From Candidatus Methanoperedens sp. (GTDB lineage: Archaea; Halobacteriota; Methanosarcinia; Methanosarcinales; Methanoperedenaceae): a stretch of 32,000 nucleotides of DNA. The DNA lies in contig JAPZAR010000007.1 of the NCBI GenBank assembly GCA_027460535.1, positions 139,307 through 171,306 of the forward strand, in the 5' to 3' direction. Both the position numbers and the translations under genes were made by a program. The notes below the pieces were generated by a model, which saw only the letters and a program-made list of their open reading frames with translations, was not told where the DNA came from and did no database searches. Of the stretch, positions 2-15,031 are shown piece after piece (position 1 is the first letter of the stretch; each line of letters opens with the position of its first letter).

Positions 2-895
2 GAGGACCTTGCATCCTATACGGACAGGATCATTGTGCAGGTCGCATCGGGAAGGTTCGGAGTGACAAGCAAGTACCTGAACAACAGCGCTGTGGTAGAG
101 ATCAAGATAGGGCAGGGCGCAAAGCCGGGTATTGGCGGACACCTGCCAGGTGAAAAAGTAGGCGAGGATATCTCAAAGACGCGCATGATACCCGTGGGCA
201 CGGATGCATTATCACCCGCCCCCCATCACGATATATATTCTATCGAAGACCTATCGCAGCTCATATATGCGATAAAAGAAGCAACGGATTACAGGAAACC
301 TGTATCTGTCAAGATAGCGGCGGTGCATAACGTCGCAGCCATCGCAAGCGGGATCGTTCGCGCCGGCGCGGATATAGTGATGATAGATGGGTTCCGCGGA
401 GGAACAGGAGCAGCGCCCATGATAATCAGGGACCATGTTGGGATTCCCATTGAACTCGCACTTGCCGCCGTGGATGACCGGCTCAGGCAGGAAGGGATAA
501 GGAACAGGGCATCCATACTCGTAGGCGGAAGTATCAGGCAGAGCGCCGATGTCGTAAAAGCCATAGCGCTGGGCGCAGACGCCTGCGTTATAGGAACGGC
601 CTCTCTCATAGCCATGGGCTGCCGCGTATGCCAGAAGTGCTACACCGGCAATTGCGCATGGGGAATAGCAACCCAGAAACCTGAGCTTGTGCGCCGCCTG
701 AATCCTGAACTTTCGGCTGACAGGCTTTGCAATCTTCTTACCGCATGGGGTCATGAGATACAGGAAGTGCTGGGCTCACTTGGCATTAATGCCATCGAAT
801 CGCTGCGGGGAAGCAGGGAGCGGCTGCGTGGCGTGGGTCTTAACCAGGAGACGCTGGACATACTCGGGATCAAGCATGCCGGGATAGGACAGTGA
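2..895 (+). CDS. gltB: Glutamate synthase FMN-binding domain protein (archaeal split GltB, domain 2); 5' end cut by the window edge
   Basis: The frame is open from nt 2 (EDLASYTDRIIVQVASGRFGVT...), so the GTG at 35 is not the real start. GltS FMN/Fe-S domain hallmarks are present: KIGQGAKPGIGGHLPGEKV, SPAPHHDIYSIEDL, IDGFRGGTGAAP and the Cys cluster CRVCQKCYTGNCAWGI. Confidence 0.9.
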   Translation, partial: EDLASYTDRIIVQVASGRFGVTSKYLNNSAVVEIKIGQGAKPGIGGHLPGEKVGEDISKTRMIPVGTDALSPAPHHDIYSIEDLSQLIYAIKEATDYRKPVSVKIAAVHNVAAIASGIVRAGADIVMIDGFRGGTGAAPMIIRDHVGIPIELALAAVDDRLRQEGIRNRASILVGGSIRQSADVVKAIALGADACVIGTASLIAMGCRVCQKCYTGNCAWGIATQKPELVRRLNPELSADRLCNLLTAWGHEIQEVLGSLGINAIESLRGSRERLRGVGLNQETLDILGIKHAGIGQ

Positions 896-921
896 TTTGT
901 ATGAAGAATTTTAATGAGAAG

Positions 922-1000
922 GAACCGCAGATAAACGCAGATGAACGCAGATTTGTTCTTGTATCCACCCTTATCCAAGTTCAACCGCGGTTACTTTTTG
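922..1000 (+). repeat. Interspersed short-period repeat element, copy C (short form)
   Basis: ccgcagataaacgcagatgaacgcagattt gives three ~10-bp CGCAGAT sub-repeats. The element ends in caaccgcggtt followed by a T-run (ttactttttg). It begins 27 nt after the gltB domain-2 stop and has the same architecture as the copies at 7285-7699 and 8470-8587 read on the minus strand. Confidence 0.6.
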
Positions 1001-1049
1001 ATGATTTGATTAATGCTGAAACATGTGGCATTGAGGGACGTGACGCTTT

Positions 1050-1778
1050 ATGAGAATCGATGCAAAAGGCATGCATTACAGGCCGTTAAACAAAATTATC
1101 CGCGATGCGGTTGCAGCAGGCGAAAAGGAGTTCGAGCTAGATAACGTGGGCGGGCAGAGGTATATCGGGGATGGATTGAACGAAACCGTTAGGATCACCA
1201 TCAACGGCACACCGGGGAACGACCTGGGTGCTTTCATGAACGGTCCGAAGATCATAGTCAACGCGAACGCCCAGGACGGCATCGCGAACACCATGAATGC
1301 CGGCGAGATAATCGTACATGGCAATGTGGGCGATATCATAGGTTACGGCATGCGCGGCGGGAAGCTGTACATCAAAGGAGATGCAGGATACCGCGTCGGG
1401 ATACACATGAAGGAGTATAAGAAACAGGTGCCGGTAATCGTGACAGGCGGTACAGCAGGTGACTTTTTCGGGGAATATATGGCAGGCGGGATATTGATCC
1501 TTCTTGGCCTGAACGGGAAGGATCCGATCGCGGGTGATTATGTGGGAACGGGAATGCACGGCGGAGTGATATATATCCGTGGAAAGGTTGACCCGTATCA
1601 CCTTGGAAAAGAAGTGAACTGCCTTGAATTGAATGAAGAGGATTTGAAGCTCATTGGTACTTTCCTTAAGGAGTACTGCGAGTATTTCGGGTTCGATTTC
1701 AATGAAGTGATGGGCGGGAAGTTCACGAAGCTTGTCCCGTTATCCGTTCGGCCGTATGGGAATTTGTATGTGTATTAA
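1050..1778 (+). CDS. Glutamate synthase GXGXG domain protein (archaeal split GltB, domain 3)
   Basis: Reiterated Gly-rich beta-helix motifs: NGTPGNDLGAFMNG, VHGNVGDIIGYGMRGGKLYIKGDAGYRVG, VTGGTAGDFFGEYMAGG, GTGMHGGVIYIRG. It lies directly downstream of the FMN-domain gene. Confidence 0.85.
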   Translation: MRIDAKGMHYRPLNKIIRDAVAAGEKEFELDNVGGQRYIGDGLNETVRITINGTPGNDLGAFMNGPKIIVNANAQDGIANTMNAGEIIVHGNVGDIIGYGMRGGKLYIKGDAGYRVGIHMKEYKKQVPVIVTGGTAGDFFGEYMAGGILILLGLNGKDPIAGDYVGTGMHGGVIYIRGKVDPYHLGKEVNCLELNEEDLKLIGTFLKEYCEYFGFDFNEVMGGKFTKLVPLSVRPYGNLYVY

Positions 1779-1883
1779 ACGTTCTTTATTTTCTTTGAAC
1801 ATCTCTCACATCTCTGGATTGGAACGGCTGCGTCTCATTCAGGGGCAACGAGATAGCAATAAAAAAATGAAAACTCTTTTTAT

Positions 1884-4800
1884 TCACACTGGATGAGCAT
1901 AAATACTCAGTCCCTGTCCAAAATACGAGTCATAGATGTGCTGATATACCACATCACACTTGTGTTGAAATAACTCTTTTGTATAGCTTACTGGCAGTTC
2001 CTCATCCAGAACCACTTCAATAGATTGTCGCACAGCAGCCCGTGATTGCTGGCGCTTTCTCCAATCGAGAACGAGTTTCTCCTGTTTAAGTGTTTCAAGA
2101 AGGTCATGAGCCACCTTCTTTACCTCTTGCTCCTCCTTCTTGCTCAGAATCATCTCAGGTTTTACCAGGAGGTCGAAGACTGCTAATTCCTCCTCACTAA
2201 GATTCTCCGAAATTCCTCTCTTTTCTTCTGCATTGAGTCCCTGGGCGAATTCAACAAGATTGGCGAAGAATGTTTCCACATTATAGGAGCCTGAATTGTA
2301 TTCATCTATCAGTTTCTGAAACTTCTCCAGGTAATTCACCCTGCTCTTGTTTAATCGAACCATTTGCATCAGTTTGCGATTAATTGCGCCCCTCAGTTTT
2401 TCAGCCTCAATCCGCTTTCGACTTTTCTCAAATTTCTCCTTCAGCGCCTCAAAATCGATCTGGCTCAAATCCACAAGGCGATATTCATCGGACCTTTCCC
2501 GGATAACATATCCTTCAGTGGCGATGGACTCGTCCAGCAGATTTTCGACTGATTCCATAACTTCAGAAATGTCAGTTTCAGGAGACAGAGAACGAATTGT
2601 TTCTGCAATTTTAGTGAAAAGCAGCTGTTTCGGGCCGAACTCGTTGGCTGCCGGGTCAGGGAGGATAGCCCTGTATATTCTGACCACACTAGCTGCCATC
2701 GAAAGGTACTTTGCCTTTGATTCGTCGCTGGTCAATATTGCATCAGTAGCATCATCAATCAACTTGACACGCTCAAAACCATAGGCTGCCTGTATCTTCG
2801 AGATGTCAATGCCTCGTTCTGTGCAAAATGCCGTGGTCTCCAAAATCAACTGCTTTAGTTGATCAACGAGCACACTCTTGTCCTTTACCGGAGTTTCGCC
2901 TTCTTCTATTCCGCCGCCTGAGCCAGAACCGTAGATTGCCAGTGCTTTCTGCAGGTTCCTGAACACTCCAACATAATCCACTATCAGACCATTTGACTTA
3001 TCTCTGAAAACCCGGTTTGCCCGTGCTATGGTCTGCATGAGGGTATGGTTGCGCATGGGTTTGTCAAGGTAGATGGTGGAACAGGATGGTACATCAAAAC
3101 CCGTCATCCACATGGCGCACACGAATACGATGCGGAACGGGTCATCCGGGTCCTTGAACTTCGTATCGAGGTCCTCTTTTACGATTCTCTTGCGATGGAC
3201 AGCGATATCTAATCCCTTTTTCTTAAAGTCTTCAATTTCATTTTGCGATTGAGACACCACGACCGCCATGTCAGTATCTTCCATAAATTTGATTTTTTCT
3301 TCAAGTTCCTTTTTCTCGGATTCTCCACATTTTACAAGCTTAATCTTCAAATCCATCTGATACAATTTCCAGTACTTTTGCACCTTATCGTACATCCGAA
3401 CAGCAGTTGCTTTGTCAATGGAGAAGACCATTGCCTTCCCAAATTGCCCGCGTCCCATGAAATGAGTGACAATGTCATTGGCTATCTTCTCCAGCCGGTC
3501 ATCCCTTGTTATCAGGTGGTATTCTCGTGAAAACTCACGCTCAAGTTTATTCTCCTGGTCTGGATCGAGTTCAGCCTCATCGATGAGGCACTGCAGGTCT
3601 TCATTCAGTTCCCTGTTGGTCAGTTGAAGCTCTGGGATGCGATTTTCATAATAAAGAGGAACCGTGGCGCCGTCATCTACAGACTGCTTGAAGTTGTAGA
3701 TGCTGACGTAGTCCCCGAAAACCTCTTTTGTCTTTTCTTCACCGATAATGAGAGGCGTGCCTGTGAAGGCGATGAATGCCGCATTGGGGAGAGCATTGCG
3801 CATGTTCAGGGCAAGGGCATCGTACTGGCTGCGGTGCGCCTCATCCGTGATGACAATAATATCTTTGCGAGCTGAAAGCATGGGATAGGTCTCGCCCTTC
3901 TTTTTATGGAACTTCTGGATGAGTGTGAATATGTAGCGGTGGTCTTCACGCAGCAGCTGCTTTAAGTGTTCTCCGCTCTCTGCCTGCACCTGCTCTTCAG
4001 TCACGGCGCCAGCGCCTGCAAAGTTCTTGTATATCTGGTTGTCCAGATCCTGTCTGTCGGTCACGATAACGAACGTGAAATTACCGGGAATTTTTCGCAA
4101 TACTTTCTGCGAAAAGAAAACCATGGAGTAACTTTTCCCGCTGCCCTGCGTATGCCAGAAGACCCCTAAGCGACCTCTATTCTTTTCGATCTGCTTCAAT
4201 GCCTCAGTAGCGTTATTCACACCAAGGTACTGGTGGTTCTTCGCAACCAGCTTCACAATCCCGCCGCTGGCTTCGCTGAATAGCATGAAATTCTCAATAA
4301 TGTCAAGAAGGCGCGCCGGCTCGCATGTTCCCCTGATCATTGTATCCAGTGAAACAATACCCTCCTCGCCTTCTCTGTTTATCTTTTTCCACTCTGCGAA
4401 GTGCTCCCACTCAGCGGTCATACTGCCTATTTTGCTCTGGCTTCCGTTTGAAAGAATGATTAAACCATTGTACCAGAAGATCTGGGGGATTGCGTTCTTG
4501 TAGTCGCGCAGGTTATCCCTGTATGCATGTTCCAGACGCTTGTGTGATGCCTTAAGTTCGATAAAGACCAGCGGCAGGCCATTTACGAAACCAACAAGGT
4601 CGGCGCGACGCTTGTACATCTCACCCGTTACCCAGAACTGCGATGCAAGGAAGAAATCATTATTCGAAGGTTCATTCCAATCGATTACACGTACGTTCTC
4701 AACGGTCTCTTCATTTTCTTTGCCCCGGAAAGAGACTTTCACGCCGCTCTTCATCAAGCGGTAAACCTCCCGGTTGGCATTCGCCGGGCTCATGATGCTG

Positions 4801-5045
4801 CGATCGCGCGTCAGTTCTTCGATGGCAAGCTCGATGGCTTCTGGTGGCAGGTCGGGATTCAGGTGCACAAGCGCGGCGCGCAGGCGGGGGAGAAGGACGA
4901 CTTCGCTGGAGGTTTCGCGCCCGAGCGTGCCATTTTCTCCGAATTTTTCGTAGAAGCAGTTTGCGATCTTCCAGCCCAAATCTGAAAAGAGTTCGATGGC
5001 GGGCTGTTCAACAAGGGAATCTTCGGAGTAATCACTCATTGCCAT
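1884..5045 (-). CDS. hsdR: Type I restriction enzyme R subunit (HsdR), 1053 aa
   Basis: SF2 translocase motifs HTQGSGKS (Walker A), VITDEAHRSQ (DEAH box) and QTIARANR (motif VI). The N-terminus (SEDSLVEQPAIELF) and the length are typical of HsdR. The frame is uninterrupted. Confidence 0.93.
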   Translation of the reverse strand: MAMSDYSEDSLVEQPAIELFSDLGWKIANCFYEKFGENGTLGRETSSEVVLLPRLRAALVHLNPDLPPEAIELAIEELTRDRSIMSPANANREVYRLMKSGVKVSFRGKENEETVENVRVIDWNEPSNNDFFLASQFWVTGEMYKRRADLVGFVNGLPLVFIELKASHKRLEHAYRDNLRDYKNAIPQIFWYNGLIILSNGSQSKIGSMTAEWEHFAEWKKINREGEEGIVSLDTMIRGTCEPARLLDIIENFMLFSEASGGIVKLVAKNHQYLGVNNATEALKQIEKNRGRLGVFWHTQGSGKSYSMVFFSQKVLRKIPGNFTFVIVTDRQDLDNQIYKNFAGAGAVTEEQVQAESGEHLKQLLREDHRYIFTLIQKFHKKKGETYPMLSARKDIIVITDEAHRSQYDALALNMRNALPNAAFIAFTGTPLIIGEEKTKEVFGDYVSIYNFKQSVDDGATVPLYYENRIPELQLTNRELNEDLQCLIDEAELDPDQENKLEREFSREYHLITRDDRLEKIANDIVTHFMGRGQFGKAMVFSIDKATAVRMYDKVQKYWKLYQMDLKIKLVKCGESEKKELEEKIKFMEDTDMAVVVSQSQNEIEDFKKKGLDIAVHRKRIVKEDLDTKFKDPDDPFRIVFVCAMWMTGFDVPSCSTIYLDKPMRNHTLMQTIARANRVFRDKSNGLIVDYVGVFRNLQKALAIYGSGSGGGIEEGETPVKDKSVLVDQLKQLILETTAFCTERGIDISKIQAAYGFERVKLIDDATDAILTSDESKAKYLSMAASVVRIYRAILPDPAANEFGPKQLLFTKIAETIRSLSPETDISEVMESVENLLDESIATEGYVIRERSDEYRLVDLSQIDFEALKEKFEKSRKRIEAEKLRGAINRKLMQMVRLNKSRVNYLEKFQKLIDEYNSGSYNVETFFANLVEFAQGLNAEEKRGISENLSEEELAVFDLLVKPEMILSKKEEQEVKKVAHDLLETLKQEKLVLDWRKRQQSRAAVRQSIEVVLDEELPVSYTKELFQHKCDVVYQHIYDSYFGQGLSIYAHPV

Positions 5046-5142
5046 TCTCTATGTCAGATTATTATTTAAAGATACGTATATATTAACTTCACTCTTGCTG
5101 AACAATAAGTTTTAACTTATCATAAATCTTAAGGCATATACA

Positions 5143-5442
5143 ATGTACAGCGAAGATTCTGTTTCGGAAATCACTTCTGATCTCAGTCATGTGATAGGCT
5201 TACCTGAGACCGAGCTTATCCACAGAGGCTTAATATCCTTTATGGAAAAGGAGATCCGGCTTGCTGAGGCGGATATAGCTGATCTTGTGGACAGATATAA
5301 TGTTGCCTCGAAAGAGGATCTGTACGAGGCGATCAGGTCTAAAAAGATACCAAGCCATCCAGCCTGGGAAGATTATATTATCTGGAAGAATAAGGAAAAA
5401 TACATCAAAGACCTGAAAGCGCACCTCGGTAAGGTACAGTAG
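5143..5442 (+). CDS. Hypothetical 99-aa protein, putative partner/antitoxin of the downstream DUF6516-like gene
   Basis: Its stop TAG (5440-5442) abuts the ATG of the next ORF (5443). I recognise no family. The N-terminal segment GLPETELIHRGLISFMEKEI resembles the helix of RHH-type antitoxins, which is weak evidence. Confidence 0.5.
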   Translation: MYSEDSVSEITSDLSHVIGLPETELIHRGLISFMEKEIRLAEADIADLVDRYNVASKEDLYEAIRSKKIPSHPAWEDYIIWKNKEKYIKDLKAHLGKVQ

Positions 5443-5823
5443 ATGCTTTTAACGTATAAAACGCTTGAAGAGGTAGCCAGGACAGAATTTTCAGATATTG
5501 TTAAAGATACGGCGCTAATTGGCGGCAGGTCTGCACAGCCTAATAAGCTGAGGATATACCTAACAGACGGCAGTTTCCTTGATGTCTGGCTTAGTGAAGA
5601 GGAGGATTATTCATATCACTGGGAGCAAAGGGCTGTGAGGGGCTTGATCCATCGATGGGATAATGCCCCTGATCATCCTGAGATCGAGACTTTTCCGAAC
5701 CATTTTCATGATGGTAAAGAAAACAATGTCCTGAGCAGTCGATTGAATGCTGATAATAGAGTTGCATTCAAAGATGTTCTTGGTTTTATCAGGATTAAAT
5801 TAAAGGGATTCCATATTCACTGA
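5443..5823 (+). CDS. DUF6516 / TumE-family-like protein (putative toxin component), 126 aa
   Basis: YSYHWEQRAVRGLIHRWDNAPDHPEIETFPNHFHDG matches my recollection of the His-rich hallmark of DUF6516 proteins (Y.YHW ... RYDNAPHHPE..TFPHHKH). Its 3' end overlaps the hsdS 3' end by 7 nt, convergently. Confidence 0.6.
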   Translation: MLLTYKTLEEVARTEFSDIVKDTALIGGRSAQPNKLRIYLTDGSFLDVWLSEEEDYSYHWEQRAVRGLIHRWDNAPDHPEIETFPNHFHDGKENNVLSSRLNADNRVAFKDVLGFIRIKLKGFHIH

Positions 5824-7160
5824 ACCGAAATGTCGATATTCTCCGCGTCCACCTCGCCAGAGATGAGCTTCGGCAGCAGCAGGTCGCGGGTGCGGCGGAA
5901 GTTGGCGTTTTTTGCAAACATTTCAATAATGCTTTTATGCATCGGAGAGCTGATTTCAGTAAATCTATCTTGTATGCTTCTTGGAGGAAGCAAAAAACTT
6001 GTTTTAGCAATAGTTTCCCTCCCAAGCTCCGTTTGGCCAGTAGAGCCGATGCCTTGACTATCAAAGTGTGGTTCAAGGGTTGACATATAAGAGCCAAAAT
6101 AATCTATACTTACCTTATCATTCGGCCGAACGATAGTGACATGAGAATCCACTGTACAATCAGGAATTTCCTTATAAATTTGAGCAATACGTCCAAGTGT
6201 TCCGATACCCGTTGAATTTATCAGGACATCACCAAATTTTATGGATTTCTCCACTGGAATTTTCGAAGCGTGCCTTCGAACTAAATCCTGATTGAATTTG
6301 CCTTCCCTAATGCATTTCTGATTGATTACAATTTGTGACGATTGGTCATCATACTTAGGCGAAACACCACGGTTAATATAATCACTAACATCTCGAATTG
6401 TTACTACTTCCCATCCCTGCGGTATCATCCCAAGCTCCGACTCCACCATCCTCACCTTCTCATGCCCCGGAAACCTGAGATTAACAAACCACTCGCGGTA
6501 GAGCGCCTGCGCCATCTCTTCCAGTATTTTGATGCGCCGCGTGTTGTTCTCGATGAGGTCGTCGTAGGCGCTGAGGATGGCGGCGATTTTGCTTTGCAAT
6601 TCGACTGATGGTAGCCAGAACATATAAGCATTAATTTGTGAAGGGCTGATATGTGGTACAGACACACCAGTTACGATCGGCTTAATGTAATCTGTAAACG
6701 ATTGATCAGCGATGACATACCGCAGATATTCGGTTAACAATCCATTTATTCCACGCAATCGGGCTACCCGTTGGACTAATAGGCAAGGAGGATCGTGCTT
6801 TTTAACCCAAGCGTACTTGAGACCAGCTTCAATCCAAGGTCGATCCATCGCTAGGATTACGTCACCACGTTTAAGTAAATATCTGGTGAAATCACCTGAC
6901 TTTGATAACGGCCAGAGCTTGACCCCCTCCCAGCGCAAACAGCCTTGAGCAACATTATCGCCACGTAATAGTTTGATTGATTCCGAATCATTGGTGTATT
7001 GGGCACTTTTGAACGGAAAACCCGTTAGTAGATCGATGTGTTCTCCGAGTTTGACCAACCTCCAAGATGTCTTCACACTTGCGTTCAAAGTACAGCCAGC
7101 AGTAGTTCCTTCACTTTCTTTTTTGGTTGTCTCACCATTTATTACATTATTTGCCATCAT
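5817..7160 (-). CDS. hsdS: Type I restriction enzyme specificity subunit (HsdS), two target-recognition domains
   Basis: The central conserved spacer is IAAILSAYDDLIENNTRRIKILEEMAQALYREWFV and the C-terminal conserved repeat is RRTRDLLLPKLISGEVD. The preferred start is ATGATG at 7160/7157, preceded by GGAGGTGGG. The ORF-track start at 7208 lacks an RBS. Confidence 0.9.
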   Translation of the reverse strand: MMANNVINGETTKKESEGTTAGCTLNASVKTSWRLVKLGEHIDLLTGFPFKSAQYTNDSESIKLLRGDNVAQGCLRWEGVKLWPLSKSGDFTRYLLKRGDVILAMDRPWIEAGLKYAWVKKHDPPCLLVQRVARLRGINGLLTEYLRYVIADQSFTDYIKPIVTGVSVPHISPSQINAYMFWLPSVELQSKIAAILSAYDDLIENNTRRIKILEEMAQALYREWFVNLRFPGHEKVRMVESELGMIPQGWEVVTIRDVSDYINRGVSPKYDDQSSQIVINQKCIREGKFNQDLVRRHASKIPVEKSIKFGDVLINSTGIGTLGRIAQIYKEIPDCTVDSHVTIVRPNDKVSIDYFGSYMSTLEPHFDSQGIGSTGQTELGRETIAKTSFLLPPRSIQDRFTEISSPMHKSIIEMFAKNANFRRTRDLLLPKLISGEVDAENIDISVQ

Positions 7161-7218
7161 CCCACCTCCCTCCCTCTCTCGCTCTGCCGTAGTCCTGAAA
7201 GCTGGCACTTCAAATTTG

Positions 7219-7259
7219 ACAGGATAACAGGATAAACAGGATTAAGAGCATATCCTGTT
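7219..7259 (-). promoter_or_regulatory. Candidate operator/promoter-associated repeats upstream of hsdS
   Basis: ACAGGAT occurs at 7219-7225, 7227-7233 and 7236-7242, with an inverted copy ATCCTGT at 7252-7258. An 8-bp stem aacaggat/atcctgtt (7235-7242 / 7252-7259) has a 9-nt loop. The cluster lies 60-100 bp upstream of the hsdS start. Confidence 0.4.
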
Positions 7260-7284
7260 AATCCCATCTGAAAAATCACCGAAC

Positions 7285-7699
7285 TAAAAAACCGCGGATG
7301 ATGGCGCCCAGAGTCACGCCTCTGGAGGGCGTGTCCACGTCGACTGTCACGCCAGTCGATTGCGTGCACACGTATGCCAGCGCACTGGCATACGTGGACG
7401 GGCGTCCTCAAGGGGCGCAACCCTTGACGTATGCCCACAGGCATACGTGTGCGCGGAGTCGAGAACCCGCAGGGTTTCGGCGTGATAAACGCAGATACCT
7501 TTGTGCCAGATGCCGGATTTTTCAGAGAAGAGCAAACGTGATGGAACACGGATTGCGCGGATGCGCGCGGATCCGTGGAAATCCGTCCAATCCGTGTTAT
7601 CCGTGTTCTGCGTTGCGGTTTTAGCACGTTTCCAGACCTGAGCGCGAAGGTCGCGGAGACTTCTGAGCTTTGCGTTCTTTGCGTACTTTGCGGTTCTGG
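7285..7699 (-). repeat. Interspersed short-period repeat element, copy A (expanded form with ~260-bp GC-rich insert)
   Basis: Read on the minus strand it runs as follows: ccgcaaagtacgcaaagaacgcaaagc (9-bp CGCAAAG sub-repeats), then cacggataacacggattggacggatttccacggatccgcgcg (ACGGAT sub-repeats), then an insert (7298-7560), then ccgcgg + tttttt. It is collinear with copy B apart from the insert and a ~45-bp segment. It begins about 110 nt downstream of the 63-aa gene stop. Confidence 0.7.
7367..7452. repeat. Nested palindrome / multi-hairpin module
   Basis: gcacacgtatgcc (7367-7379) is the exact reverse complement of ggcatacgtgtgc (7440-7452). Between them the 9-mers ggcatacgt and acgtatgcc occur again, and there is an inner hairpin caaggg..cccttg. 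In total there are four alternating copies of one 9-mer. Confidence 0.7.
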
Positions 7700-7812
7700 A
7701 TATTTCTCATCCATAATGCCCAACAATATATTTTATGGTCTGTTTTTAATCTATAAAGTCATAAATATTTGGTTAGGTTCAAATCAAAGAAAAAGTTGCG
7801 GAGAGAAATGAA

Positions 7813-8004
7813 TTAAGATGAAACGGTTTTCGCATCAATTTTTCCAGACATCAGCCCTTTCTTTTTCCGGGCAGGCACATCATCAACATATTTATAAGAA
7901 ACAACCTTTGTTTCATGTGGCCCTTCCCACTCATCTGGTTTGATCGGCGATGCTTCTATATCTTTTATCGCCTTTTCCCTCTCTTCTTTAGTGTATTTTT
8001 TCAT
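7813..8004 (-). CDS. Hypothetical 63-aa protein, putative antitoxin partner of the BrnT-like gene
   Basis: It starts 5 nt after the stop of the upstream BrnT-like ORF. It is Lys/Glu-rich and I recognise no family. The assignment rests on position only. Confidence 0.4.
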   Translation of the reverse strand: MKKYTKEEREKAIKDIEASPIKPDEWEGPHETKVVSYKYVDDVPARKKKGLMSGKIDAKTVSS

Positions 8005-8009
8005 TGATA

Positions 8010-8297
8010 CTATGTTTTACATCTTTCCCTATATAAATTCTTATAGCCGTCCGAAGGCTCATAGGCAGTAAGCAGATAGAATCTCTGAGTAGATTGCTGT
8101 GTCAGCACCACCATAAGGATTCTGCCCTGAGATTCACCCAATATAGTATATCTTATTTCTCCAGCGGTCTTAATCTTCCGGGAATAGGTCAGCCCATTAA
8201 GTACATTGAAAACATCCGAAACGCTAACACCATGCCTTTTTATATGGTCTTCAGCATCAGGTCCGGCTATTAACTCAATCCTTTTCCAATCAACCAT
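8010..8297 (-). CDS. BrnT-like (DUF497-like) toxin candidate, 95 aa
   Basis: DHIKRHGVSVSDVFNVL resembles the KHGVSFEEA segment of BrnT. RYTILGESQGRILMVVLTQQSTQRFYLLTAYEPSDGYKNLYRE resembles the '..G....lvVv.t.r...iriITAr.a...E...Y' core. The TATA-like tattaaaa (complement of 8322-8329) lies about 27 nt upstream of the ATG, which would fit a leaderless mRNA. Confidence 0.5.
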   Translation of the reverse strand: MVDWKRIELIAGPDAEDHIKRHGVSVSDVFNVLNGLTYSRKIKTAGEIRYTILGESQGRILMVVLTQQSTQRFYLLTAYEPSDGYKNLYRERCKT

Positions 8298-8381
8298 TTA
8301 AGCTTGAATAGTCCACACCGGTTTTAATACTTTCGAAACTCAGTGGGTATAAAATCTTTTAGGGTTACAATAGCTTAATTT

Positions 8382-8447
8382 GGCAGACAGTGTCTGCCGA
8401 TTTTAAAAGGGTAATTTATCGATATCGATTCGTGACGCACTGCGTCA
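8382..8447. promoter_or_regulatory. Cluster of three different perfect palindromes upstream of the BrnT-like cassette
   Basis: The three are ggcagaca-g-tgtctgcc (8382-8398), atcgatatcgat (8418-8429) and tgacgca-c-tgcgtca (8433-8447). They lie 85-150 bp upstream of the cassette start and directly downstream of repeat copy B. Confidence 0.45.
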
Positions 8448-8469
8448 TAAATTTGAAAATTCACATCAT

Positions 8470-8587
8470 AAAAAAACCGCGGTTGACGTGGATACGCGCG
8501 GATCTGTGGAAATCCGTCCTATCAGTGTCATCCGTGTTCCGCACTGTGGCTGTGCTTTGCGCTCTTTGCGTCCTTTGCGGTGGGCTG
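8470..8587 (-). repeat. Interspersed short-period repeat element, copy B (compact form)
   Basis: Read on the minus strand: ccgcaaaggacgcaaagagcgcaaagc ... cacggatgacactgataggacggatttccacagatccgcgcg ... caaccgcgg + ttttttt. It begins about 35 nt downstream of the 45-codon ORF that follows hsdM. Confidence 0.7.
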
Positions 8588-8622
8588 CGCCAAAATTAGA
8601 AGCCGACATTTCAACAGTCATA

Positions 8623-8760
8623 TTATTCATCAGATGCCTCAACCATTTTACGCTTCTTCGCGATTTTTGTTCTTTTTTCAACAAGGGCTTCGAATTCATC
8701 TGGCATATAATCCTCCAGGTTCAATAACAGCACTCCCTTCGTTTCAGCCTCTTTTTTCAT
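8623..8760 (-). CDS. Hypothetical 45-aa ORF translationally coupled to hsdM
   Basis: Its ATG (8760-8758) overlaps the hsdM stop TGA (8759-8757) as ATGA. The product is [45 protein letters not shown]. It is below the ORF-track size cut-off and I recognise no family. Confidence 0.3.
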
Positions 8761-10307
8761 CCGGCTTCCAGCAGCCTCTCAACATTCTCAGCAATACGCC
8801 CTTCCAGTTCCCGCGCCTCTACATTAAGCGTTTCAAGCTCCTCGTTCAGTTCCTCAAGGCGTTCCTTGAAATCAAAATCATCAGCCTCGCGTTCAGCCAC
8901 TCCAACATAGCGCCCCGGGTTCAGGCTCCAGCCCTGCGCTTCAATCTCGGAAAGTTCAGCCACTCTGCATAAACCGGGAACATCCACGTATTTAACATCG
9001 GGGAACTTCTCTTTCAACATCGGCGCGCTGCCGTTCGTTGTTTCAGGCTCCTCGCCCCGATATAGCCGCACGATATTGGCAAGGAATTCGATTTGATCAG
9101 GCATGAAGTCTCGATGGGCGCGGTCAACCTGATGGAATATATACCGTGCGTCCAGAAAGAGGACTTTGTCCTTGCGCGGCGTTTTTAACTTGCCGCGGTC
9201 GAGGAACCAGAGAGTGCATGGCAATGTTACCGTGTAGAAGAAGTTCGAGCCAACGGCAACCATTACATCTACGGCGCCAGCTTCAATAAGCGATTTTCGG
9301 ATATCCTGCTCGCTTCCGCGGGCGTCGCTGGCTGAGTTTGCCATCACGAATCCACTGCGACCACCCTCATTCAGAGCGCTGTAAAATACCTGGATCCAGA
9401 GATAGTTGCCATTATCAGGCTTTGGCATGCCAAATGGGAAGCGGGGGTCGTCCTTGATACGCTCCTTGTCCACTCTATCGACGTTAAACGGTGGATTTGC
9501 CATCACGAAATCGAATTTGCCAAAGCTTTTGTGGATATCTTCGTAGTAGCTGTTGCCCTCGCGAATATCTCCAGAGAGACCATGAACCGCGAGGTTCATT
9601 TTGCACAGGCGCACAGTTTCAGCGGTTTTTTCCTGACCATAAACGCTTATCTCAGAATTGGGATTCTTCTTGTGGTTTCCCACGAAACGCGCACTCTGGA
9701 CGAACATACCGCCTGAGCCGCAGGCAGGGTCAAAGATGCGCCCGTGATAGGGCTCGATGACCTCGACTATGAGTTTAACAATAGAGGTGGGTGTAAAGAA
9801 CTCGCCTCCCTTCTGCCCCTCGCTCATGGCGAACTTGCCCAGGAAATACTCATAGATCTTTCCAAAGGCATCGCCTTCAATGTCCATAGGCACAGAGTTG
9901 AATGTCTTTAATAATTCAACCAGGGTGCTGTTATCGAGGTGATTATATGTCTTGGGCAGAATGTCTTTGAGCTCTTCGTTCTCAGCCTCGATGGCGCGCA
10001 TCGCTTCGTTGATGGCCTTTCCAATATCAGCACCTTCTGGCAGGTTGAGAAGCTTGGAGAATCTTGAGGCTTCAGGCAGGTACAGCACACCGCGCGCCTG
10101 GTAATCTGTTTTGCCGACGGCGCGCCTGTCTGAACTTTTACCTGCCAGCTCCTTCTGGGCTATAGTAAACTTGTGATCAGCGTAACGGAGAAAGATCAGT
10201 CCAAGAACCGGGACTGAGTATTCCGAAGATTTTAATTTAGAATTTGCCCGTAGCTCGTCTGCGGCAGACCACAGACGTTTTTCAATCTCGTTATGATTGC
10301 CTGCCAT
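8757..10307 (-). CDS. hsdM: Type I restriction enzyme methyltransferase subunit (HsdM), 516 aa
   Basis: The N-terminus has the HsdM_N signature [36 protein letters not shown]. The AdoMet motif is [11 protein letters not shown] and the catalytic motif is [11 protein letters not shown]-terminal coiled coil is present. Confidence 0.93.
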
Positions 10308-10760
10308 TTTTGCGCCTCATTTCTCCTTCCTTGTTTGACCCGCTAAGGACGATAGGCATCCTTTAGTTAGACCGAACATATAACTTAGTATATATTGATA
10401 AGCATATTGTCTTAAATGCAATATCGAATTATGGATTTAAATTTAAATATGTCTCCTTTTGGCTTTGTCATACCAACTCTTCCTGAGCCTTGAAGAGGAG
10501 GAATTTCTGGGGCTGTTCGCAGAATATGAGCCTTATCCCCCAAAGTCCTCAGACGCATGGAATCGAAATCATAACGGTGGCTAAAATTTATGTACGATTA
10601 ATAACAATGATTTCTTATAATGTATGTAATCCTCTCCCTTTAATTAAAAAATAGACGGGAATAAAGATGGGGAAAGGATTCGGGATAATTCATGCCTGGG
10701 GAAGCGGTTCTGGTCAGCGGGGCTCTTAATTGCTCATTTATCATTGAAATGAGGTAACGG

Positions 10761-11612
10761 ATGGAAATTAAAAGAATAGGGGTGATAGGTGCAGGGATTA
10801 TGGGAGGAGGAATAGCCCAGGTCGCTGCACAGAGCGGTTATGAGGTAGTCCTGGAAGACCTGAACGAAGAATATGTAAAAGCAGGATTCACAAAAGTAAA
10901 AGAAAGACTTGAAAGAAGGGTAAGTGAAGGAAAAATTGAAAGCAAAGAGAAAGACAGGATCCTCTCGAATATAAAAACCTGCACAAGCCTGGAGGATTTT
11001 GGAAATGTTGACCTGGTGATCGAGGCGGTGGTAGAAAATGAAGATATTAAAAAACAGATTTTTAAAGAGCTTGATAGAATATGCCCCAGCGATATCATTT
11101 TCACAACCAATACCTCTTCAATATCAATAACCAGACTTGCCCGGGTCACAGAAAGACCGAAGATCTTTGCTGGTATGCATTTCATGAACCCTGCGTACAT
11201 AATGAAACTTGTGGAGGTGGTCCGGGGGTTGCACACGTCAGAGGAGACAATAGATGCGGTGAAAGCAATAGCTGAAAAAATGGGTAAAATCCCTGCTGTT
11301 GTCAATGATTCACCAGGCTTTGTAGTGAACCGTTTGCTTATGCCCATGGTAAATAATGCCATCTACTGCCTGCAGGAAGGGGTTGCTGCCAGAGAGGACA
11401 TTGATACCATCATGAAGTTTGGGGCAAATCATCCGATGGGACCGCTTGAGCTTGCGGATTTTATTGGCCTTGATATTTGCCTTAATATTATAGGGGTCCT
11501 TCATTCAGAACTCGGAGAGAAATATATGCCTTGTCCATTGCTTCGAAGAATGGTAGCTGAGGGAAAGCTCGGGAGAAAAAGCGGAGAAGGATTTTATGAA
11601 TACAGGAAATGA
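10761..11612 (+). CDS. hbd: 3-hydroxyacyl/3-hydroxybutyryl-CoA dehydrogenase
   Basis: Rossmann motif IGVIGAGIMGGGIAQV; family segments include NTSSISIT, HFMNPA, EVVRG, PGFVVNRLL and DFIGLD. The 283-aa length fits. Confidence 0.85.
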   Translation: MEIKRIGVIGAGIMGGGIAQVAAQSGYEVVLEDLNEEYVKAGFTKVKERLERRVSEGKIESKEKDRILSNIKTCTSLEDFGNVDLVIEAVVENEDIKKQIFKELDRICPSDIIFTTNTSSISITRLARVTERPKIFAGMHFMNPAYIMKLVEVVRGLHTSEETIDAVKAIAEKMGKIPAVVNDSPGFVVNRLLMPMVNNAIYCLQEGVAAREDIDTIMKFGANHPMGPLELADFIGLDICLNIIGVLHSELGEKYMPCPLLRRMVAEGKLGRKSGEGFYEYRK

Positions 11613-12371
11613 ACTCGTAAAGATTGAGAAGAAAAAGGATATCGCGATTCTAATATTGAACAGACCTGAAGCTATGAATGTCCTGGATACCAGAATGCTT
11701 CAGGAATTCGGGTCTTTTTTGACCGAGCTTGAGAATGACAAAGAGATTAGAGCCGTAATTATAACCGGTGAAAAAAATTTCTGCGCGGGGGCAGACATTA
11801 AAGAAATCAAAATAAAACATCCGGCGGAAGCAGAAATGTTTTCAAGGCTGGGTCATAGAGTCTTCAATCAGCTTGAAAATATTGAAAAACCGGTGATCGC
11901 TGCAATTAAAGGCTATGCACTGGGGGGAGGATGTGAACTTTGTCTTGCCTGTGACATAAGGATCGCTGCCGATGATGCAAAATTCGGCCAGACTGAAATC
12001 AATCTTGGTCTTATTCCCGGGTTTGGAAGCACCCAGCGGCTGACAAGACTCGTGGGGATAGGGAAAGCAAAGGAGATGATACTTACGGGTAGGATTATAG
12101 GCGCAAAAGAGGCAGAATCAATCGGGCTTGTCAATATGGTTGTGAAGAATGAAGAGCTTGCGAAAAAGGCAGAAGAAACTGCACAGGTTCTGGCTCAAAA
12201 AGCCCTCTAACTATTAAAATAGCTAAAATGTTGATAAATAAGAATCTGGAAATGAAAAAAGGACTTGAGATGGAGATAATTTCGTTCTCCGAATGCTTTG
12301 CCTCCCAGGATCATATGGAAGGTATAAACGCCTTCCTGGAAAAGAGAAAGCCCAGGTTCAAGGGTAATTGA
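11596..12371 (+). pseudogene. Enoyl-CoA hydratase (crotonase), interrupted by a single-base frameshift near 12202-12207
   Basis: Frame 1 (11596-12210) encodes the crotonase core (NRPEAMNVLD, FCAGADIKE, AAIKGYALGGGCELCLACDIRIA) and stops at TAA 12208-12210. The expected C-terminus (PLTIKIAKMLINKNLEM...FSECFASQDHMEGINAFLEKRKPRFKGN) continues in the frame starting at 12204 and ends at 12371. One extra C in the CCC run would restore a crotonase of about 259 aa. Confidence 0.8.
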
Positions 12372-12379
12372 TCTTTAAA

Positions 12380-12601
12380 ATGTCCGAAAAATTCGACGTC
12401 ATAATTGTAGGCTCTGGGCCAGGGTGCAGCAGCTTATTCGCTTGCAAAGATGAGGTATTGATGGTAGAGAAGGGCAAGTATCCTGGGGCTAAGAATGGCG
12501 GGAGGATGTATGTGCATCGGTATCTGCTTCATGCATGCAATAAAGTCCATGATCACTTTTTCTTTTTTTTTATTATGGTCTTAGCATCAGTGATTCAATA
12601 A
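12380..12601 (+). pseudogene. 5' remnant of an FAD-dependent ETF-quinone oxidoreductase (FixC-like) gene
   Basis: MSEKFDVIIVGSGPG...VLMVEKGKYPGAKNGGRMY matches the N-terminal dinucleotide-binding segment of FixC/ETF-QO, with small deletions. Similarity is lost after about 45 codons, and the frame runs into a T-homopolymer and the convergent acd stop. Confidence 0.55.
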
Positions 12602-13794
12602 GGCGCGAACTCTTTTCCCAGGATCTCTCTGCCAATAATTATCTTCATGATGTTTTGTGCTCCCTCAGCCCCTATAATATAGGAAGCCACGCCCCTTAAT
12701 CCCCGTTCAAGCCCTGCTTCTTTGGTATAGCCGTATGCCCCATACCATGTCAATACGTCCCTAATGATATCAAAAGCCACGGTTGGCGCAATGAGCTTGG
12801 CACTGGCTACCGCTTTATTTATTTCATTATGGCTGAATCTTTTTTCAGCGTACATCCGGTCAACCATCCAGACCGCTTTGTAAACCATTAATTTTGCAGA
12901 TTCAAGTCTTATAAAATCCTCGGCCATTTGAAACTGGATTCCCTCGAACTTTGCAAGGGGGCTCCCGAAAATGTGCCTTTCTTTTATATATTCAATTCCG
13001 GATTCCAGGGCTTTCTCAGCAGCACCTATGCATGCGGCTGCCACAAGCGTCCGGGCGCAGTTAAAACCCTCCATCGCGTAATAAAATCCATTATTCCATT
13101 CCCCTATGAGATAATGAGCAGGTATCTCTACATTGCTGATATTTATAGTGCCCGTGGATATTCCTTCTCTCCCCATCTGCTTAAAAATGCTGGTAGTTAT
13201 CCCTGGTATATCTTTTACCGGAAGGTAGCAAAGCGACAGGCCTTTATGCTTAAGTTCAGGACTTGTCTTTATGATGGCCACATAACCTCCTCCATATCTG
13301 GCAGCTTCCCTGACACCGCTTATGAAGGTCTTTGCGCCATTTACCACCAGTTTATCACCCTTTTTTTCCATCATAGTTGACATTGCTGCTATATCCGAGC
13401 CTCCACCAGCTTCAGTCGAGGCTATACCCAGAAATTTTTTTCCATTCGTTACTTCGGGAAGAATTTCTTCCTTGGCTTTCTTGTTTCCATATCTATTCAT
13501 CAGGAAACCCCAGCCTGCTTCTACGAGGTAATAAACAGCAGTCGCCATGCTTATATCGGCTCTGGCTATTTCTTCGGCTGCTATTGCGGCCGTGGTGAAG
13601 TCTGCACCCTGCCCGCCGTACTCTTCTGGAATGGTTATACCAAGAAGTCCCATAGCCGCCATATCTTCCACGACTTCACGAGGGATCTCTCCACTCTCAT
13701 CGATTTCGCGGGCACGCGGAGCAAGCTTTTTATTGCAGAATTCCCTCACAGACTTTCTGAAAAGTTCCTGTTCTTCAGTAAAGGAAAAATCCAT
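12595..13794 (-). CDS. Acyl-CoA dehydrogenase
   Basis: N-terminus MDFSFTEEQELFRKSVREF; further ACAD features are GSDIAAMST, WITNG-like FISGV and the C-terminal YEGAQNI-like IGAEGAQNIMKIIIGREIL. The start at 13794 is preferred because ggggtaaaa precedes it; an alternative ATG lies at 13806. Confidence 0.85.
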   Translation of the reverse strand: MDFSFTEEQELFRKSVREFCNKKLAPRAREIDESGEIPREVVEDMAAMGLLGITIPEEYGGQGADFTTAAIAAEEIARADISMATAVYYLVEAGWGFLMNRYGNKKAKEEILPEVTNGKKFLGIASTEAGGGSDIAAMSTMMEKKGDKLVVNGAKTFISGVREAARYGGGYVAIIKTSPELKHKGLSLCYLPVKDIPGITTSIFKQMGREGISTGTINISNVEIPAHYLIGEWNNGFYYAMEGFNCARTLVAAACIGAAEKALESGIEYIKERHIFGSPLAKFEGIQFQMAEDFIRLESAKLMVYKAVWMVDRMYAEKRFSHNEINKAVASAKLIAPTVAFDIIRDVLTWYGAYGYTKEAGLERGLRGVASYIIGAEGAQNIMKIIIGREILGKEFAPY

Positions 13795-13903
13795 TTTTAC
13801 CCCCATAATGTTATTGCTTTGTTGTTAATTAAGTTATCTCATCTCTTTAGTTAATTTAATAACCTCGAAGGAATTCTAAGGGACAGAAGAAGAGGAAAGA
13901 CAT

Positions 13904-15031
13904 ATGACCCAATACAAAATCCCAGTTATACCCGGCGACGGGATCGGCCCTGAAATAATCAGAGAAGGACGCAAGGTACTTGATGCGGCAGGCGAGAGAT
14001 TCGGCTTCGATATCGAATGGACTGAATACCCCCACGGCGCTGACCACTACCTTGAAACGGGCGAACTCATTTCTGAAGATACGTTAAAGGACCTTTCCCG
14101 ATTCAAGGCCATCTATTTCGGCGCAATAGGCGATGAAAGGATAAAACCCGGGATCCTTGAAAAAGGCATTCTTCTTACCATCCGCTTTTATTTTGATGAG
14201 TATGTCAACCTCCGCCCTGTGAAATTACTGGAAGGAGTCTGGACACCCCTCAAAGACAAGACTCCGAAGGATATCGATTTCGTGGTGGTGCGCGAGAATA
14301 CCGAGGATTTCTATATAGGCATAGGCGGGCGCGCTAAGAAAGGAAGGAGCAAGAAAACGCTTGAGGTCATACGGAATTTGTATAACGTGAAATTCGGCCT
14401 GGATATTAATTCGGACAGCGAAGAGATAGGCTACCAGCTAGGTCTTATCAGCAAGGAAGGCACGCGGCGTGTCATCCGCTATGCCTTTGAGCTTGCAAAG
14501 GACAGTAAAAAGCATCTCTCTTCAGTGGATAAAGCAAACGTGCTCTCGGATATATACGGGTTCTGGCGCGAGGAGTTCACATCCATTGCTGCAGAATACC
14601 CGGATGTAAAGACGGATTTCAATTTTGTGGATGCCATAACGATGTGGTTCGTTAAGAACCCCGAATGGTTCGATACAGTTGTGGCCCCAAACATGTTCGG
14701 CGACATCATCACTGATCTTGGCGCGATGATACAGGGCGGTCTTGGTCTCGCCCCTGGCGGCAACATAAACCCGGAAGGCACAAGCATGTTCGAGCCAATA
14801 CATGGAAGCGCACCCAAATACAAAGGCCAGAACAAAGTCAACCCAATCGCAACCATCTGGGCGGGGTCACTCCTGCTTGACCAGATAGGTGAAAAAGATG
14901 CAGCATCAGCCATCGTCAGGGCTATAGAGCAGAATATCGTCAATGGAGAGGTGAAGACCTACGACATGGGAGGGTCAAATACTACCTCCGAAGTCGGAGA
15001 CGATATCGAGAGATTGATAAAGGAAGGTTAG
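13904..15031 (+). CDS. Isocitrate/isopropylmalate dehydrogenase-family enzyme (tartrate / D-malate / 3-IPM dehydrogenase-like)
   Basis: [53 protein letters not shown] and [21 protein letters not shown] are beta-decarboxylating dehydrogenase signatures. The N-terminus resembles the tartrate dehydrogenase subgroup. Substrate cannot be assigned. Confidence 0.8.

Follow-up and report, generated by a model that had tools for sequence, protein, structure and literature searches.

What are the two small genes that lie between hsdS and hsdR in a Type I restriction-modification (R-M) locus of Candidatus Methanoperedens (ANME-2d), and do they belong functionally to the restriction enzyme? In the window, by which we mean the whole 32,000-nucleotide stretch of DNA analysed here, a 99-aa and a 126-aa ORF are found antisense to the surrounding hsdR and hsdS genes (Table 1), and the original prediction saw in them a possible, undescribed toxin-antitoxin (TA)-like or abortive-infection module functionally tied to the R-M system. 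Judged by its sequence, the pair has all the genomic hallmarks of type II TA modules, and we consider it most likely to be a TumE-TumA superfamily member, a type II TA cassette belonging to an archaeal/Chloroflexota subfamily with an MJ0235 antitoxin; the genes are called tumA (99 aa) and tumE (126 aa) below. This assignment draws on the TumE domain, the two-gene architecture, a portable promoter with its palindrome, the variable genomic context, an empty site and a mode of decay in which the antitoxin is retained.

The layout described originally held in all its sequence statements, namely two abutting plus-strand ORFs joined as TAG-ATG, a 7-nt overlap with hsdS and a 97-bp AT-rich spacer. 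The tumA stop codon (TAG, 5440-5442) directly abuts the tumE start codon (ATG, 5443-5445) and the two genes share one frame, while the tumE stop codon (5821-5823) interlocks with the hsdS stop codon on the minus strand (5817-5819), leaving 5817-5823 common to the two convergent genes. The spacer between tumA and hsdR (5046-5142) has a G+C content of 24.7%, compared to 43.2% for the window, and measures 103 bp when hsdR is started at Met3 (5039), as the gene callers and the orthologues have it; for hsdS the start at 7160 given by the gene callers yields 447 aa, compared to 463 aa for the ORF. Both small genes are real genes and not chance ORFs, since the databases hold 376 relatives of TumE and 234 of TumA and both genes were called on four independent contigs in the same arrangement as in the window. 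Proteins identical to TumA and TumE are recorded in metagenome-assembled genomes of Candidatus Methanoperedens, and the host is this genus rather than Methanosarcina. A second tumAE copy was not found within the window, and among the Rfam models for structured RNA none matched 4800-10800 up to an E of 0.1. Another small pair is situated between hsdS and hsdM and carries direct repeats on its flanks; the BrnT_toxin profile scored 29.2 bits on its 95-aa ORF, below the cut-off of 34.5, and the precomputed record is likewise weak.

Table 1. Features of the hsdR-hsdM region, with coordinates in the window and the basis of each call.
Feature	Coordinates	Strand	Basis
hsdR, Type I restriction subunit (likely start 5039)	1884-5045	-	ORF; Pfam HSDR_N, ResIII, SWI2_SNF2, T1RH-like_C (identical contig)
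hsdR promoter block ATTATTATTTAAAGATrygTATATATTAAC, outside the cassette	5046-5087	-	conserved next to hsdR
Inserted cassette, ~0.74 kb (tumAE with its own promoter)	about 5088-5830	+	bounded against the L095 empty site
tumA promoter/operator block (candidate operator)	5098-5142	+	conserved upstream of paralogues
Perfect palindrome ATAAGTT-TT-AACTTAT (7-2-7), candidate antitoxin operator overlapping the TATA-like element	5105-5120	.	palindrome scan
tumA-like ORF, 99 aa	5143-5442	+	ORF list
tumE ORF, 126 aa	5443-5823	+	ORF list
hsdS, specificity subunit	5817-7160 (gene call); 5817-7208 (ORF)	-	weak Methylase_S match
Second small pair: 63-aa partner (7813-8004) and BrnT-like toxin (95 aa, 8010-8297)	7813-8297	-	ORFs
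hsdM, methyltransferase subunit	8757-10307	-	ORF; HsdM_N and N6_Mtase

The 126-aa protein, assigned to DUF6516/TumE in the original prediction, contains the motif YSYHWE...IHRWDNAPDHPEIETFPNHFHDG in its translation, and the profile search bore the assignment out: it matches Pfam PF20126 (TumE, formerly DUF6516) with 66.3 bits at a cut-off of 23.4 (E 2.5e-18), residues 38-118 aligning to profile positions 1-78 of 81. Against the NCBIfam equivalog NF045777 'toxin TumE' it reached 26.7 bits at a cut-off of 90, with the core motif alone aligned, so that the protein is a member of the family and no equivalog of the validated TumE. There is also a weak match of residues 55-98 to component B of PDC-M44 in PADLOC (PDC-M44B, E 6.3e-7); PDC-M44 is, however, a candidate system only, and the 99-aa protein has no match to its component A. 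Among 22 relatives the invariant residues include D55, Y56, H59, W60, E61, R71, D73, N74, A75, P76, H78, P85, H87, F88, H89 and G91, a set that may constitute a metal-binding or catalytic cluster.

The AlphaFold2 model of TumE (pLDDT 81, pTM 0.78) is an alpha+beta fold with a helix at residues 2-15, six DSSP strands of at least three residues plus short bridges, and a helix at residues 105-124, in agreement with the published fold, in which two helices pack against a sheet of about seven antiparallel strands (PMC10584680); the most conserved segment, residues 62-100, is modelled at pLDDT 59-69. The TumA model (pLDDT 89) is all-helical, with four helices. Foldseek searches with both models, as proposed originally, returned no significant match: for TumE the best PDB hit had an E of 0.2, with weak Bet v 1/START-like matches at a TM of about 0.3, none of them usable, and the best BFVD hit (E 0.12) was not usable either, and for TumA only generic helical hairpins at E 1.9 or worse were obtained from the PDB. 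At the sequence level, the TumE profile found nothing among PDB sequences and the TumA profile gave one chance match (E 1.1). TumA matches Pfam HTH_17 weakly and below the cut-off (E 0.011), and neither Foldseek nor the PDB sequence search revealed a recognised DNA-binding fold in it.

The 99-aa partner was at first thought to fit no family. It turned out to belong to Pfam PF27273 'MJ0235', according to the precomputed annotation on the identical protein P0121, and the same family is precomputed on all 120 listed of the 234 TumA relatives. A TumA profile search of 1.84 billion representative proteins yielded 164 clusters, nearly all of them stand-alone proteins of about 90-100 aa.

A system of this kind has been described and tested, which leaves the claim of an undescribed system unsupported. 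Durairaj et al. (Nature, 2023; PMC10584680) found that a small partner gene usually precedes DUF6516 genes and named the system TumE-TumA. Six gammaproteobacterial TumE toxins halted the growth of E. coli and were neutralised by their partners, and one of them, from Allochromatium tepidum, blocked the incorporation of 35S-methionine, that is, translation; an RNase activity was proposed in that study, without proof (PMC10584680). The same work reported that TumE subclusters use unrelated antitoxins and already covered archaeal members, and the cluster to which the validated subcluster 1a belongs has a remote RelB homologue as partner family (PMC10584680). The pair in the window resembles this system in the TumE domain scoring above the Pfam cut-off, in the conserved core rich in His, Asp and Glu, in an alpha+beta fold whose terminal helices pack against an antiparallel sheet, in the bicistronic arrangement with the partner gene upstream and in having no PDB relative. 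It differs in its antitoxin, an MJ0235 (PF27273) four-helix protein instead of a remote RelB homologue, and in its archaeal host, the validated pairs being gammaproteobacterial.

The association of the two genes is a general one. An MJ0235-type gene lies immediately 5′ of tumE in about 62 out of 80 species-representative genomes having a TumE relative, including every genome whose TumE is at least about 40% identical, and the partner was upstream of tumE on all contigs inspected. The hosts of the pair comprise Methanoperedens, ANME-1, Methanobacteria, Methanomicrobia, Halobacteria, Chloroflexota, Bacteroidota and KSB1; the distribution is patchy, with many close relatives of 70-95% identity across Methanoperedens genomes and metagenomes. 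Close paralogues were found in contexts as different as a TA cluster (L005), the vicinity of a type I-D CRISPR-Cas locus (L006) and the interval between methanogenesis and ATP-synthase genes (L008). In L005 and L011 an intact MJ0235 gene is followed by a TumE fragment.

The survey of homologue neighbourhoods proposed originally did not reveal a family-wide association with R-M systems. Using the HsdR, HsdS and HsdM of the window as tblastn queries, R-M genes were detected near TumE in only about 5 of the 80 genome loci, roughly 75 of the 80 lying outside R-M loci, and no neighbour family recurred in more than 2 of 149 neighbour ORFs (Pfam/PADLOC, within 4 kb, 22 loci). Two loci are orthologous to the window, L010 (BLZ2; HsdR 86%, HsdM 94% and HsdS 38% identical) and L017, so that tumAE adjoins hsdR in three Methanoperedens species; near the TumE of L014, L074 and L089 weak HsdM-like tblastn matches were obtained. 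In L014, tumAE is placed between hsdS and hsdR (the latter preceded by a PIN gene) of a different, EcoEI-type Type I R-M system, where it adjoins a DUF4258/MqsA-like pair. The independent embeddings thus number at least two, out of roughly ten separate contexts in the Methanoperedens clade. We read this as TA modules clustering generically in R-M and defence islands; some selective link of tumAE to R-M loci may nonetheless exist, since the pair stands beside hsdR in three species and was independently embedded in L014.

The upstream region of tumA travels with the pair. The block ACAATAAGTTTTAACTTATCATAAATCTTAAGGTATATAcAATG is conserved 5′ of the Methanoperedens tumA paralogues across differing genomic contexts, and contains a TATA-like element, TTTTAACTTA, about 24-33 nt 5′ of the tumA ATG, suggesting that tumA is probably transcribed without a leader or with a very short one. 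In the 1.85 Mb of loci fetched, the core of the palindrome, TAAGTTnnAACTTA, was confined to a position 37 nt 5′ of tumA starts, truncated remnants included. The hsdR-proximal block (ATTATTATTTAAAGAT..TATATATTAAC) is distinct from the tumA block and is kept beside hsdR in BLZ2, L017, L095 and L091, with or without tumAE. A bidirectional operator common to tumA and hsdR was considered and rejected in view of about 95 extra bp that split the two promoter blocks in BLZ2 and L017. As the tumA block is conserved across contexts, its palindrome is exclusive to tumA upstream regions in the 1.85 Mb and the two promoter blocks can be separated, the cassette appears to be autonomous.

Comparison with R-M orthologues delimited the insert. 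Towards hsdR the similarity to them breaks off near 5086/5087, and towards hsdS near 5829-5833. L095 represents an empty site, in which no more than about 30 bp separate the 3′ end of hsdS from the hsdR promoter block, and this bounds the insert as given in Table 1. The final three hsdS codons and the stop codon are thus made of cassette DNA, and the C-terminal tail of HsdS after ...GEVDxxxxD varies among orthologues and alleles. We also considered terminal repeats or a target-site duplication at the cassette ends and rejected them: the paralogues are unlike one another past the tumE stop codon, and the C-terminal tails of TumE differ. Transposon-like ends were not found; a TTCACT...TGAAC similarity at both junctions of the window is absent from the paralogues.

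To follow the fate of the junction, 80 metagenome loci of the same R-M lineage were fetched by means of the HsdR N-terminus. tumAE was absent from all HsdR orthologues at 82% identity or less. A 5′-truncated tumA is retained in L090, L092, L093 and L098, the promoter palindrome being kept in the first three, and despite the tumA remnant tumE was not detectable in L090, L092 and L098; in L093 and L096 the contig ends before or within the position of tumE. The tumE position is occupied by a DUF4258-type pair in L090 and by a DUF429-type protein together with a metallo-beta-lactamase-fold protein in L092, and the junction of L099 holds only an MqsA-like gene. In L017, conversely, hsdR is broken into fragments and tumAE is intact. 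Retention of the antitoxin with loss of the toxin is, at the sequence level, as expected for a TA module.

The junction itself proved to be a general hotspot for defence and TA cargo in this R-M lineage. Among 53 orthologous loci having both gene ends on the contig, the gap between hsdS and hsdR is 23-38 bp in eight, and the other 45 carry cargo of 0.5-5.7 kb. The cargo families include GmrSD (9), DUF5655 (9), DUF429 (9), DUF3800 (6), SIR2 (3), DarT with Macro (2), Fic (2) and DUF4258 (2), as well as SMC/AAA-type and OLD/AAA-type ATPases. This agrees with published descriptions of the site (PMC12255303; bioRxiv 10.1101/2024.01.29.577857). Type I R-M loci often hold embedded defence genes, 'guilt-by-embedding' is a validated predictor (bioRxiv 10.1101/2024.01.29.577857), and DarTG2 lies between hsdS and hsdR in the RRDM island of EPEC, a site that is likely a recombination hotspot for defence genes (PMC12255303). 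DarTG2 is comparable to tumAE as a TA pair at this junction, and DarT with Macro occupies the same junction in two of the orthologues studied here; it differs in that it acts by DNA ADP-ribosylation and is co-oriented with the R-M genes under the RptR-controlled island promoter, whereas tumAE is antisense and self-promoted. The idea that embedding in the R-M locus is meaningful therefore stood in its general form, the junction being a known defence/TA hotspot and L014 offering a second embedding, but a specific tie to the R-M system did not emerge.

Taken as a TA cassette, the pair would work as follows. TumA would bind and neutralise TumE, and would repress its own promoter at ATAAGTT-TT-AACTTAT, which overlaps the TATA-like element. 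Upon depletion of the antitoxin, free TumE would arrest growth by blocking translation, an effect shown for a gammaproteobacterial TumE. Its activity would probably be that of a metal-dependent hydrolase or an RNase, built on the cluster D55/H59/E61/D73/H78/H87/H89. The cassette came to the hsdS-hsdR junction by insertion, as one item of cargo at this hotspot. Its most likely function there is that of an addiction and/or abortive-infection module working autonomously, rather than of a part of the restriction enzyme.

Whether defence is part of its role is a question that is compatible with the TA explanation rather than opposed to it. A stand-alone abortive-infection module, in which infection would deplete TumA and free TumE independently of the R-M system, and which would be sited at the junction by the clustering of defence genes, seems to us possible and still rather doubtful. 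The company at the junction and the match to a PADLOC candidate lend some support to a defence role: the same site holds GmrSD, DarTG, SIR2, OLD/AAA-type ATPases and Fic in the orthologues, TumE matches component B of PDC-M44 (6e-7), other copies adjoin CRISPR-Cas and TA clusters, and guilt-by-embedding has predictive value (bioRxiv 10.1101/2024.01.29.577857). However, many copies are located among housekeeping genes, a defence phenotype is unreported for any TumE-TumA pair (PMC10584680), and relatives that would hint at an arms race were lacking on the viral side, with none in IMG/VR contigs, no PHROG match and none usable in BFVD.

A guardian of the restriction enzyme resembling PrrC, with TumE held latent through the R-M complex or through antisense or promoter coupling and set free once a virus blocks restriction, is very unlikely. 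PrrC of the EcoprrI Type IC R-M system is likewise embedded between hsdS and hsdR, and TumE-family toxins, like PrrC, target translation (PMC10584680; PMC12707154); moreover, tumAE overlaps hsdS convergently by 7 nt, has a promoter divergent from that of hsdR and was embedded independently in the EcoEI-type R-M system of L014. Nevertheless, PrrC is a single large protein, an ABC-type ATPase with an anticodon nuclease, without an antitoxin and held latent by the R-M proteins, while tumAE is a two-gene cassette with its own antitoxin and a portable promoter, on the strand opposite to the R-M genes, and has no sequence or domain similarity to PrrC, consisting of a TumE domain and a separate partner gene. 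Furthermore, PrrC occurs almost nowhere but inside Type I R-M loci (bioRxiv 10.1101/2024.01.29.577857; PMC12707154), whereas tumAE is near R-M genes in about 5 of 80 loci and absent from most of the orthologues. The nearest R-M orthologues lack it, retain no more than a truncated tumA or have different cargo, and in L017 it survives beside a degraded hsdR. The functional tie to the R-M system proposed originally thus went unsupported, given a promoter of its own, mostly unrelated contexts, and absence, decay or replacement in the closest R-M orthologues.

The reading that the two genes are not a TA pair, and that in this subfamily they instead encode a small regulator and a protein without toxicity, either an enzyme or one that binds nucleic acids, serving housekeeping or regulation, is hardly probable. 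It could appeal to the validated pairs being all gammaproteobacterial and outside the MJ0235 subfamily, to a score far under the NCBIfam equivalog cut-off, to the copies found among housekeeping genes and to the failure of PDB and BFVD searches to reveal an activity; against this speak the patchy distribution with 70-95% identical relatives in variable contexts, the portable promoter with its palindrome, the upstream gene being kept where the downstream gene is lost and the core motif held in common with the validated toxins.

Highly improbable, in our estimate, is a co-option of tumAE as a Type I R-M guardian within Methanoperedens, for which its position beside hsdR in at least three species and the second, unrelated capture could be cited. 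It is conceivable that antisense transcription into hsdS ties the release of TumE to the status of the R-M system, or that TumA binds near the hsdR promoter; if true, either coupling would make the pair an archaeal two-component analogue of PrrC.

The conceptual gain from this locus is small; TA and defence genes embedded between hsdS and hsdR have already been published (PMC12255303; PMC12707154; bioRxiv 10.1101/2024.01.29.577857). As a TA cassette, the pair brings methane-oxidising archaea into the TumE-TumA superfamily, with MJ0235 as a distinct antitoxin family, and shows the hsdS-hsdR junction as a cargo hotspot in archaea as in bacteria. In practical terms, it offers a precisely bounded cassette of ~0.74 kb, the candidate operator ATAAGTT-TT-AACTTAT, natural empty, full and decayed alleles, and invariant residues for mutagenesis, which make the subfamily a convenient system for finding the biochemical activity of TumE.

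The pair tumAE, composed of the putative antitoxin gene tumA and the putative toxin gene tumE, was also found in a Type I R-M locus of EcoEI type (L014), where it is placed between hsdS and a PIN gene followed by hsdR, and where a DUF4258/MqsA-like pair and a nucleotidyltransferase gene lie between hsdS and hsdM. This R-M system is unrelated to that of the window, and tumAE is there a separate instance of the same embedding. At L017, whose R-M system is orthologous to that of the window, the hsdR beside an intact tumAE is broken into at least four frames and shortened, with about 630 residues that align. Either the gene is a pseudogene, or its state is an artefact of how this short-read MAG was assembled.

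Coordinates of the features in the window and in the comparison loci
Locus	Position	Strand	Feature
Window	7157-7714	-	185-aa ORF, gene-caller prediction
Window	7813-8297	-	second small pair, between hsdS and hsdM: BrnT-like 95-aa toxin and 63-aa partner
Window	7266-7301/8451-8486 and 7549-7618/8480-8549		repeats bracketing the BrnT-like pair
L005 (= L011)	2601-3147		second MJ0235-family gene (98 aa), then 70-aa ORF
L010 (Methanoperedens sp. BLZ2)	741-13303		R-M locus orthologous to the window's, with other cargo
L014 (uncultured Methanoperedens-like archaeon)	2652-13928		EcoEI-type Type I R-M with tumAE
L017	144-1850		hsdR adjoining intact tumAE
L090	4186-4407		shortened tumA
L092	7685-7891		shortened tumA

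In the BLZ2 locus, the end of tumE is overlapped by an MqsA-like ORF, a YhcG/DUF1016 PDDEXK nuclease gene is located between hsdS and hsdM, and AbiEi/AbiEii genes occur on both flanks. HsdM is 94% identical to the window protein whereas HsdS reaches only 38%, which indicates a swap of specificity.

Between hsdS and hsdM the window carries the BrnT-like protein, whose score is under the Pfam cut-off, and its partner, to which no family was assigned. One copy of a repeat element stands on each side of the pair (short form about 135 bp, long form about 435 bp), each terminated by three TTTGCG heptads (7669, 8556). The arrangement looks like a MITE-flanked insertion; the gene set in the matching part of the BLZ2 locus differs. 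The 185-aa ORF overlaps the hsdS start by 4 nt, crosses the repeat element, has no Pfam match and is probably not a genuine gene. A beta-oxidation-like cluster of this methane-oxidising archaeon (3-hydroxyacyl-CoA dehydrogenase, enoyl-CoA hydratase and acyl-CoA dehydrogenase; 10761-13806) immediately adjoins the R-M locus.

Four metagenome contigs (L090, L092, L093, L098) carry a tumA of 68-73 aa that lacks the N-terminal part, starts with MFIEKEIRL and keeps 78-84% identity. No tumE was detectable in L090, L092 and L098; its position falls outside the L093 contig. The promoter palindrome upstream of tumA, a candidate operator, is intact in L090, L092 and L093. The shortened gene could have been kept as an orphan antitoxin with an anti-addiction role, or it could be just a leftover. 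At L005, the 70-aa ORF is 36% identical to part of TumE, and the locus is a further copy with the antitoxin intact and the toxin truncated, clustered with DUF4258/MqsA and acylphosphatase-domain genes.

Within the same R-M lineage (metagenome loci L101-L169), the hsdS-hsdR gaps hold GmrSD, DUF5655, DUF429, DUF3800, SIR2, DarT with Macro, Fic and OLD/AAA-type genes. Several recurrent cargo ORFs in these gaps have no Pfam match, for example a 114-aa ORF accompanying a recurrent 275-aa ORF in L101-L107, and are candidates for 'guilt-by-embedding'.
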